A stretch of DNA of 64,000 bases from the IMG/VR virus record IMGVR_UViG_3300033463_000011, positions 1-64,000 of that record; one strand, 5' to 3'. The position numbers and the translations under genes are program-made. Positions 30,234 through 31,863 of the stretch are shown here, one piece after another. Source of the DNA: a virus (taxonomy: Duplodnaviria; Caudoviricetes). The stretch's first letter is position 1, and the number at the start of each line of letters is the position of its first letter. The notes beneath the pieces are model-generated. The model was not told the origin of the DNA, made no database searches, and saw only the letters and a program-made list of their open reading frames with translations.

Positions 30234-30433
30234 CTATGAAACGATATATTAAGGCAGAAACGATATCAGTAAATGAATTAAGTAAGGAGCGATTAGAAAA
30301 TATCGTTTCAGAAATAGTTAATGTGATAAACACCCCTCAATTAGGCGAAACTAAACGCATATTGCAGATAATTAGAATTTTAGAATTCTATAATCTGAAA
30401 TAATATATAAATCGTTATATAATTAGTTATAAC

Positions 30434-30493
30434 CGTCGAGTTTTGTATTTTCCTTGACACCCTCGGCGATATAAAATAAAAATAACAGGAGGA
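30434..30493 (+). ncRNA. Putative preQ1-I-like riboswitch (translational)
   Basis: P1 CGUCGAG/CUCGGCG; loop UUCCU pairs with AGGAG of the RBS; A-rich L3; leader of preQ transporter. Confidence 0.65.
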
Positions 30494-30499
30494 ACCATA

Positions 30500-31225
30500 A
30501 TGGGTTCAAAAGTCAAAAGTCTTGTGAACGACTATAAAGTTCTCTTAAGAAGTGTTCCAGCATTAATCACAACTATTTTTGTAGTCGGTACAATTTTGAT
30601 GAATTTGTCAGCCGCAAAAATCATTTTCAATGCTTGGAATGTAGCAGTCACTGGTGGTTTCATTTTAAGTTGGTTACCCTTCTTGTGCATGGATACTGTA
30701 GCAAAGAGGTTTGGTGCGAGAGCAGCTATCTTGCTTAACATCTTATCTGCTGCAGGAAATCTTTTTGCTGTATTATTCCTTGCATTAGTGGCAGTCATCC
30801 CTACTACAGAACCTTATACTGAATTCAATTACATCTTTGGTGCAGTTTGGTTCATTTGTTTAAGCAGCACAGTTGCATTCGTAGTATCTGGTGTAATCAA
30901 TAGTTTAGTAAATGTCGCTGTAGGTAAACTTTTCAAAGGTAAAACAAATATCATTGAATTTTTTACAAGAAGCGCGCTTTCTACATTTGTAGGTCAGGCA
31001 TTAGATAACTTCATTTTTATCGCTGGTGTTTATGTAGTATTTGCTCCGATATTCTGGGGAACAGAACCTCTTCCTATTCTTACATGTGTAGGTACTGCAA
31101 TCTTAGGTGGTCTTATGGAACTCCTATGCGAAGTACTTCTTACACCTCTTGGATACAAAATTGTTAAGGGATGGGAAAAGAACAATGTAGGCGAAGAATA
31201 TCTTAAACTTCATCCTCAGAAGTAA
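30500..31225 (+). CDS. yhhQ: Queuosine precursor transporter (YhhQ/VUT family)
   Basis: About 6 TM helices; FL..D....FG, RS..ST.VGQ.LD; que context. Confidence 0.85.
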   Translation: MGSKVKSLVNDYKVLLRSVPALITTIFVVGTILMNLSAAKIIFNAWNVAVTGGFILSWLPFLCMDTVAKRFGARAAILLNILSAAGNLFAVLFLALVAVIPTTEPYTEFNYIFGAVWFICLSSTVAFVVSGVINSLVNVAVGKLFKGKTNIIEFFTRSALSTFVGQALDNFIFIAGVYVVFAPIFWGTEPLPILTCVGTAILGGLMELLCEVLLTPLGYKIVKGWEKNNVGEEYLKLHPQK

Positions 31226-31233
31226 TTAAATTA

Positions 31234-31348
31234 GAGAGTTTTGTATCAACCTTGAAAGCCTCTCATTAAACAAAAATAACAGGTTACACAATAACACAAA
31301 TCGTTATATAGAGTGTAGCCAACAATTATGGTTACACTCTATCTTTTT
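31234..31348 (+). ncRNA. Putative preQ1-I-like riboswitch (transcriptional) with terminator
   Basis: P1 GAGAG/CUCUC; AACCU/AGGUU pseudoknot; terminator 31308-31348. Confidence 0.65.
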
Positions 31349-31362
31349 ATAAGGAGAAAAAT

Positions 31363-31863
31363 ATGTCCAGAAACGCAGAAGAATTACAAGGAGTAACATT
31401 ACTCGGAAATCAGAACACAAAGTACAAGTATGAATACGACCCAAGTATTCTTGAAACATTCGTAAATAAGAATCCCGATAACGATTACGTTATCACATTT
31501 GATGGATATGAAGGCACAAGTTTGTGTCCTAAGACAGGTCAGCCTGATTTCTTCAAAATGGTTATCAATTATATTGCTAACGAAAAATGTGTAGAATCAA
31601 AGAGTCTTAAGTTGTATCTGTTCAGTTTCCGTAGTACAGGTGAATTTCATGAAGACGTTGTTAACAGAATTGGTAAAGACCTTGTCAAGTTGTTAGACCC
31701 TAAATACCTCGAAGTAAGAGGTATATTCTCTCCAAGAGGTGGCATTGCTATCTATCCGTTCTTCAACTATGTAGGAGATACAAAGTACGAAAGCTTTGCA
31801 ATGCAGCGAAAGCTTGATACAATGCGTGATGCTTGTAACAGAACAGTAAAATATGATATGTAA
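31363..31863 (+). CDS. queF: NADPH-dependent preQ0 reductase, type I
   Basis: [26 protein letters not shown]. Confidence 0.95.

Follow-up and report, generated by a model that had tools for sequence, protein, structure and literature searches.

The preQ1 riboswitches are textbook examples of minimal aptamers and serve as a model of how RNA recognizes a ligand. Those known so far fall into just three classes with five motifs (PMC11625349). The models of preQ1-II and preQ1-III (RF01054 and RF02680 in Rfam) describe multi-helix HLout pseudoknots of about 77-100 nt. The preQ1-I aptamer (RF00522), a high-affinity binder of preQ1 and also of preQ0, is an H-type pseudoknot of about 34-36 nt with a loop of about 9-14 nt, and its types are defined by a dinucleotide, UC in type I and AC in types II and III. 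In gamma-proteobacteria, yhhQ is regulated by preQ1-I type III, in which CCU pairs with an AGG that follows a variable linker and a conserved A-run (PMC10622847); YhhQ is an importer of preQ0/preQ1 (PMC5372724).

The DNA analysed here, called the window, is the first 64 kb (positions 1-64,000) of a 200,233-bp IMG/VR virus record. A reading of its sequence alone, hereafter the sequence-only reading, had proposed that a hairpin CGUCGAG/CUCGGCG followed by AGGAGG forms a preQ1-I-like pseudoknot over the ribosome-binding site of a transporter gene, the loop containing a UUCCU complementary to the Shine-Dalgarno (SD) sequence. We found the quoted string letter for letter at 30434-30492, the whole element covering 30434-30499, and the complementarity in fact extends to 7 bp, UUUUCCU (30448-30454) with AGGAGGA (30487-30493), for a duplex energy of -6.7 kcal/mol (RNAduplex). 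In this first copy the loop has 21 nt (30441-30461) and the tail AUAUAAAAUAAAAAUAAC (30469-30486) is followed by AGGAGG; the SD lies 7 nt upstream of the yhhQ ATG at 30500, and the span from P1 to P2 is 60 nt. The features of copy 1 are the following:

30409-30423, + strand: promoter-like motif AAATCGTTATATAAT of the phage-wide RAATCGTTAT class, assigned from sequence, with AAATCGTTATAT at 30409-30420
30434-30440, + strand: 5' strand of P1, CGUCGAG, pairing with 30462-30468
30441-30447, + strand: L1 block UUUUGUA, conserved in the family and unpaired; candidate pocket or tertiary element
30448-30454, + strand: 5' strand of P2 (anti-SD), UUUUCCU, given by an unbiased best-helix search as UUUUCCU/AGGAGGA, 7 bp; its core covaries
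30455-30461, + strand: L2, UGACACC, family consensus U-GAMA-S-C; its final C (30461) is, by analogy with preQ1-I, the candidate base for ligand specificity
30462-30468, + strand: 3' strand of P1, CUCGGCG, pairing with 30434-30440
30469-30486, + strand: L3, by family comparison a variable linker, the A-run AAAAAUAA (30478-30485) and one spacer nucleotide, C30486
30487-30493, + strand: 3' strand of P2 by pairing, AGGAGGA, which includes the yhhQ SD AGGAGG (30487-30492)
30500-31225, + strand: regulated gene, a YhhQ/Vut_1 transporter of 241 aa (Pfam PF02592, E=6.4e-22)

In the minimum-energy structure of copy 1 given by RNAfold, P1 is formed and the SD is free. The fold energy of the single sequence is unremarkable (z=0.5), as would be expected for a pseudoknot, which lies outside what the folding program can model. 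We propose, with a probability of roughly 70%, that 30434-30493 constitutes the aptamer and the expression platform of a translational OFF riboswitch, an expanded and phage-restricted variant of preQ1-I responding most likely to preQ1, preQ0 being possible. In the absence of binding data, the ligand, the OFF polarity and the location of the pocket are all inferred.

The element is not recognized by the existing models. With Rfam 15, both at the gathering thresholds and at E<=10, searches of the window, of the 1.2-kb region 30300-31500, of the relatives described below and of the whole 200-kb genome returned only chance snoRNA-like matches. The preQ1-I model RF00522 (gathering threshold, 39 bits) had no match at E<=10 on the window, on 30300-31500, on the 200-kb genome or on the other members tested, and RF01054 and RF02680 had none at E<=10 in any Rfam search covering members. 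The novelty suggested from the sequence alone, which a strong match to a preQ1-I, -II or -III model would have removed, survived this search. In addition, no account of a preQ0 riboswitch, of a preQ1-IV or of a preQ1 riboswitch variant in phages turned up in the literature searched, many subscription papers being outside its coverage.

Relatives were collected by searching IMG/VR, JGI/ENA metagenomes and GTDB genomes for DNA patterns, by a protein-profile scan for phage yhhQ, and with a covariance model, R1, built on the first 17 members. Copy 1 scores 71 bits with R1, and a second copy located between yhhQ and queF scores 74 bits. Four related phage contigs, reached via the transporter protein, already had compensatory changes in P1. 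In total, 35 distinct relatives were obtained, all on viral/phage or metagenome contigs, the complete genomes being mostly of 120-200 kb; across loci, the transporter proteins are 17-90% identical to YhhQ of the window. Scanned with a strict pattern, 185,579 species genomes yielded a single true match, on a 142-kb contig of a Bacteroidaceae MAG. This contig looks like a phage of the same group, and its element closely resembles that of the phages of about 145 kb. R1 had no match in 151 sampled Clostridia genomes, a negative result limited by the search filters, and the INPHARED phage collection, from which near records may have been withheld, contained nothing matching the region or YhhQ by blastn or tblastn. 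A 35.7-bit match was observed at L010:1060-1137 on the minus strand of IMGVR_UViG_3300026521_000003; the loop (UUUUGUAAGUUCCUUGACAG) and the A-run are kept there, with no convincing P1 and no obvious downstream que gene, and it may be a decayed copy.

The members share one order of elements. In the 5' half, P1 (5-9 bp, with a closing G-C) is followed by UUUUGUA and 2-4 variable nucleotides, the 5' strand of P2 (usually xCCU) and U-GAMA-S-C; in the 3' half, the second strand of P1 is followed by a linker of 0-15 nt, AAAAAUAA, 0-2 nt and the 3' strand of P2 (usually AGGx). The five inner pairs of P1 are formed in all of the first 19 members, with two to four Watson-Crick or wobble types at positions 2-5, and the closing G-C, which corresponds to G30440-C30462 in copy 1, is present in 35/35. 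For P2, an unbiased search for the best helix between loop and tail found the same place in 32 of the 35 sequences. With the helix anchored at GAMASC on one side and UAA on the other, positions 1, 2 and 3 form pairs in 35/35, 34/35 and 35/35 members, the types being CG, UA and AU. Over positions 1-5 we counted 150 paired cells out of 175; sliding the partner strand by 1-3 nt lowers this to 71-109. Next to the CC/GG core of P2, the flanking pair (x1:z1) is formed in 17 of 19 members, as U-A (11), A-U (4) or G-C (2), a level reached by only 1 in 20,000 shuffles. Finally, three members have fully compensated P2 cores (ACU/AGU at L033:4502, CUC/GAG at L023:1607 and CAU/AUG in L211). Since both P1 and P2 show compensatory changes, the pseudoknot is real, and we regard the H-type pseudoknot as established, on evidence that is comparative.

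The unpaired blocks are nearly invariant. In the L1 block UUUUGUA, positions 1, 2, 5, 6 and 7 are invariant (35/35), position 3 is kept in 33/35 and position 4 in 34/35. In L2, the final C, the U at -7 and the A at -5 are found in all 35 members and the G at -6 in 34, and AAAAAUAA ends 0-2 nt before P2 in 33/35. The penultimate base of the loop is C (16), G (13) or U (6), never A; copy 1 has CC. The preQ1-I hallmarks, namely a G-C pair closing P1, UU at the start of the loop, C at its end and the A-run, proved invariant or nearly so across the 35 members, and the loop of 21 nt, which had been called longer than canonical, is representative of a family with loops of 19-22 nt (21 nt in 24/35) versus 9-14 nt. 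About 20 constrained unpaired nucleotides beside freely covarying helices is the pattern that would be expected of a ligand pocket or of a tight tertiary core.

Two further pairings were considered. A helix between UUUUG and YAAAA of the tail was rejected as a stable element: it would cross P2, and it is lost in the UUCG relatives L002 copy 1, L184, L185 and L003. The tail base opposite the invariant G in this pairing is always C or U. The short inner loop helix UGU/AMA predicted by RNAfold is preserved as CGU/ACG in L002 copy 1 and as UGU/ACG in L199, but is broken in the ten GAAA members and in L205. In L189:589-678 and L190, a 5-bp hairpin with a GAAA tetraloop is inserted in the L3 linker, demonstrating that this segment, which joins P1 to the A-run, can accommodate large insertions.

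The features of preQ1-I that are met are the H-type pseudoknot, the G-C floor pair, the terminal C of the loop, the UU after P1 and the A-run before P2. The type-defining dinucleotide is not met, the family having CC, GC or UC (UC in 6/35), nor is the minimal size, with L1 of about 10 nt as compared with 2-3 nt in preQ1-I. We have therefore not filed the element as a member of RF00522, as there is no Rfam match and the criteria of the UC/AC dinucleotide and of the 9-14-nt loop fail. Homology to preQ1-I rests on motif resemblance and on one bridging sequence. An independent riboswitch class for the same ligand could account for the same data, with the G-C, UU, C, A-run and CCU/AGG arising by convergence for a guanine-like base in an H-type pseudoknot, and UUUUGUA and GAMA building a different pocket. 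The failure of RF00522, RF01054 and RF02680 at E<=10, the loop of 19-22 nt as compared with about 12, the missing UC/AC signature and type I CUA, and two long invariant unpaired blocks without counterpart in types II or III are all compatible with such an origin. However, the blocks of the RF00522 consensus, loop UUCGuAAaCc.UC and tail AUAAAAAACUAAGg, come in the same order as UUUUGUAA..CCU..C and AYAAAAAUAA-N-AGG in the family, and intermediate sequences exist. The yhhQ leader of a 51-kb phage (L219:610-658, IMGVR_UViG_3300027542_000013) scores with both models, 20.2 bits with RF00522 (E=0.026 locally), below the 39-bit threshold, and 17.4 bits with R1; it is near-canonical preQ1-I and, as far as its sequence tells, may link canonical preQ1-I to the expanded family in evolution. 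It opens a graded series of phage yhhQ leaders, continued by L205, with UUUCGUAA and a CUAA tail, and by L002 copy 1, L184 and L185, with UUCGUA and larger loops; these four intermediates combine UUCGUA or UUUCGUA with the CUAA tail. We take the family to be derived from preQ1-I, in an expanded form borne by phages, and consider an independent origin a real alternative, albeit an unlikely one.

The leaders at L002:2925-2998, at L184:615-689 and in L185 (about 30-100 nt upstream of the yhhQ start) also have an inner hairpin UUCGUA...ACGAA in a loop of 21-30 nt, and 8 extra nucleotides between the A-run and AAGGAGG. They reach only 9-20 bits with R1, and this sub-type may be a sister motif.

In the phage genome, yhhQ is followed by queF, queC, queD (PTPS), queE (radical SAM) and folE. 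The second copy of the aptamer precedes queF, with a platform of its own:

31234-31285, + strand: copy 2, same aptamer, with P1 31234-31238/31260-31264 and P2 AACCU (31248-31252) with AGGUU (31281-31285)
31308-31348, + strand: intrinsic terminator of copy 2 before queF, fold z-score -4.7

The 5' arm of this terminator can alternatively pair with 31282-31289, overlapping P2, and the truncated transcript of copy 2 is predicted to fold into an antiterminator. In the yhhQ copies of the family, the 3' strand of P2 is the SD itself; in the queF copies it reads AGGUU or AGGC, and the stretch after it can pair with an intrinsic terminator's 5' arm. The next gene encodes Vut_1/YhhQ or QueF in every readable member except two, in line with the placement of preQ1-I ahead of genes for synthesis or transport of queuosine or preQ1. 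The exceptions are L172:2237-4483 (Ga0247609_10036704), where an unknown gene of 152 aa lies between the element and a yhhQ whose product is 90% identical to that of the window, with queF further on, and L169, a 1.2-kb contig with an unknown gene. In L172, a second unknown gene (153 aa) precedes queF, and neither unknown gene has a Pfam or PHROG match. At L033:4244-4570 (IMGVR_UViG_3300044556_000045), two aptamer copies flank a remnant of the queF N-terminus of about 35 codons; the second copy, with a fully compensated P2 UUCUACU/AGUAGAG, drives yhhQ. This arrangement looks like the decay of a queF unit.

One aptamer on two types of platform, always with genes of one metabolite, is the classical signature of a riboswitch, and it speaks against both a constitutive structure and a protein operator specific to one gene. 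Leaders recognized by a protein or another trans-acting factor, for instance an RNA-binding regulator of the phage or of the host, without any small molecule, also show conserved unpaired blocks and covarying helices, and no binding data exclude that the pseudoknot is such a site. Yet the element is only about 60 nt long and is coupled to two different platforms, it is tied specifically, in phages that differ widely, to genes that transport or synthesize one metabolite, it has pocket hallmarks in common with a known metabolite aptamer, and no conserved candidate regulator gene lies alongside in the loci read; we consider this possibility very improbable. A structured leader without sensing, acting constitutively to damp translation or to stabilise the mRNA, is hardly tenable: P2 alone (-6.7 kcal/mol) could partly mask the SD without ligand, but the near-invariance of about 20 unpaired nucleotides, the reuse of the aptamer with a terminator/antiterminator and the exclusive association with yhhQ/queF would be left unexplained.

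The sequence-only reading had also placed the element directly after a RAATCGTTA motif. This motif is indeed present, at 30409-30420, and its possible role as a part of the switch was rejected. Indeed, ATCGTTAT has 36 copies on the + strand of the 200-kb genome versus about 6 expected, mostly intergenic and 20-40 nt upstream of an SD, and the (R)AATCGTTAT(A) sites include 29555, 30409 and 31298 in the window; moreover its placement differs, upstream of the aptamer in yhhQ copies and between the aptamer and the terminator in queF copies. RAATCGTTA is, as far as can be judged from its distribution, a promoter-like element of the phage lying outside the aptamer. If started from this motif, the transcript of copy 1 would begin a few nucleotides before P1. 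In queF copies, a start at the motif inside the expression platform would bypass the terminator.

The riboswitch that we propose at 30434-30493 would work as follows. With little ligand, P1 would be formed and the SD exposed. When a free 7-deazaguanine base (most likely preQ1, possibly preQ0) is abundant, it would bind at the junction of P1 and P2, where, by analogy with preQ1-I, it is inferred to stack on G30440-C30462 and to pair with C30461, with contributions of the UU after P1 and of the A-run. C15/C17 of preQ1-I provide the analogy for a specificity role of the final C of the loop (PMC11625349, PMC10622847). The bound ligand would lock P2, leaving AGGAGGA paired 7 nt upstream of the ATG; with the SD buried, binding of the 30S subunit would be blocked and synthesis of the importer shut off. 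At copy 2, the same aptamer would favour the terminator before queF-queC-queD-queE-folE, and the two copies would jointly keep the precursor pool steady for a DpdA-type DNA modification. A TGT/DpdA-like gene is located beyond the window, at G000:73284-74276, where it adjoins a clamp-loader gene. It was detected with PHROGs only (phrog_887, E=3e-34), the Pfam TGT model PF01702 detecting no transglycosylase in the phage genome at E<=0.001. The phage thus holds the set of genes expected for 7-deazaguanine DNA modification (compare PMC6884629).

In the absence of binding data, preQ1 is inferred as the most likely ligand, as the end product of the adjacent operon. QueF is present in the seven records out of seven that have QueC (G010-G015 and G018). 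In four others (G016, G019, G020 and G021, carrying L203, L206, L207 and L211, respectively), the element and yhhQ are present and neither queC nor queF was found; these are phage genomes of 122-176 kb that are complete or nearly so (96-100%). This looks like a regulated salvage of a 7-deazaguanine base without its synthesis. In such phages preQ1 is not necessarily made, and the ligand could be preQ0 or another imported base. As these four phages would sense whatever base is imported, preQ0 remains possible.

Binding data are lacking and the polarity is inferred, but the element very probably works as a riboswitch for 7-deazaguanines, and it represents a new preQ1-I variant that current models miss. 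A preQ1-I-like aptamer, possibly of a new subtype, was also the proposal of the sequence-only reading; the covarying pseudoknot, the conserved hallmarks, the failure of the Rfam preQ1 models and the yhhQ/queF genes support it, binding of preQ1 or preQ0 remaining an inference. A bolder interpretation, which we put forward only tentatively, is that of a fourth, phage-restricted architecture ("type IV" preQ1-I or a new class), in which UUUUGUA and GAMA form an extra module that shifts specificity (e.g. towards preQ0 rather than preQ1, or to two ligands) or links sensing with the complete burial of the SD, large phages running the homeostasis of their DNA-hypermodification precursor independently of the host. 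A well-populated variant supported by covariation and overlooked by existing models would add a consensus with which ligand specificity and SD burial can be tested. It would also be a rare case of a phage with its own metabolite sensor, which would balance import against synthesis of a base put into the phage DNA by a DpdA-type enzyme to evade restriction (PMC6884629). The phages that keep only the switch and the importer suggest a regulated scavenging of a host or environmental precursor. With a short element, a clear mutational design and two natural types of platform, the hypothesis is directly testable.

Among the known systems, the family appears, from sequence features, closest in design to preQ1-I type III, as seen in the E. 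coli structure (8FZA; PMC10622847). They share the yhhQ gene family, an H-type pseudoknot with UU directly after P1, the pairing of a loop CCU with the AGG of the SD, the C right before the 3' strand of P1, the A-run before P2 and the variable linker, as well as a translational OFF design with full burial of the SD, the OFF polarity being inferred for the phage element. In contrast to type III, the phage loop has 19-22 nt instead of about 9, with UUUUGUA(A) added in L1 and U-GAMA-S in L2; S/U-C replaces AC before the 3' strand of P1, UAA-N stands between the A-run and AGG, and the element occurs in phages, not in Pseudomonadota, and is undetected by RF00522. With type I, as represented by the Carnobacterium antarcticum structure (PMC8752633, PMC11625349), it has in common UUYGUAA, CC(U), the terminal C, the A-run, UAA, GG and the G-C floor pair. 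However, P2 of type I pairs the loop GUAA with the tail UAAG, whereas covariation in the phages supports CCU/AGG; the phage tail also lacks the C of CUA, the second-ligand base, and the loop has about 9 extra nucleotides. Finally, copy 2 resembles the transcriptional type II riboswitch of B. subtilis queC, in that the 3' strand of its pseudoknot overlaps the antiterminator and folding would favour the terminator; unlike that riboswitch, copy 1 would act on translation, and the phage aptamer is about twice the size, without the AC signature.
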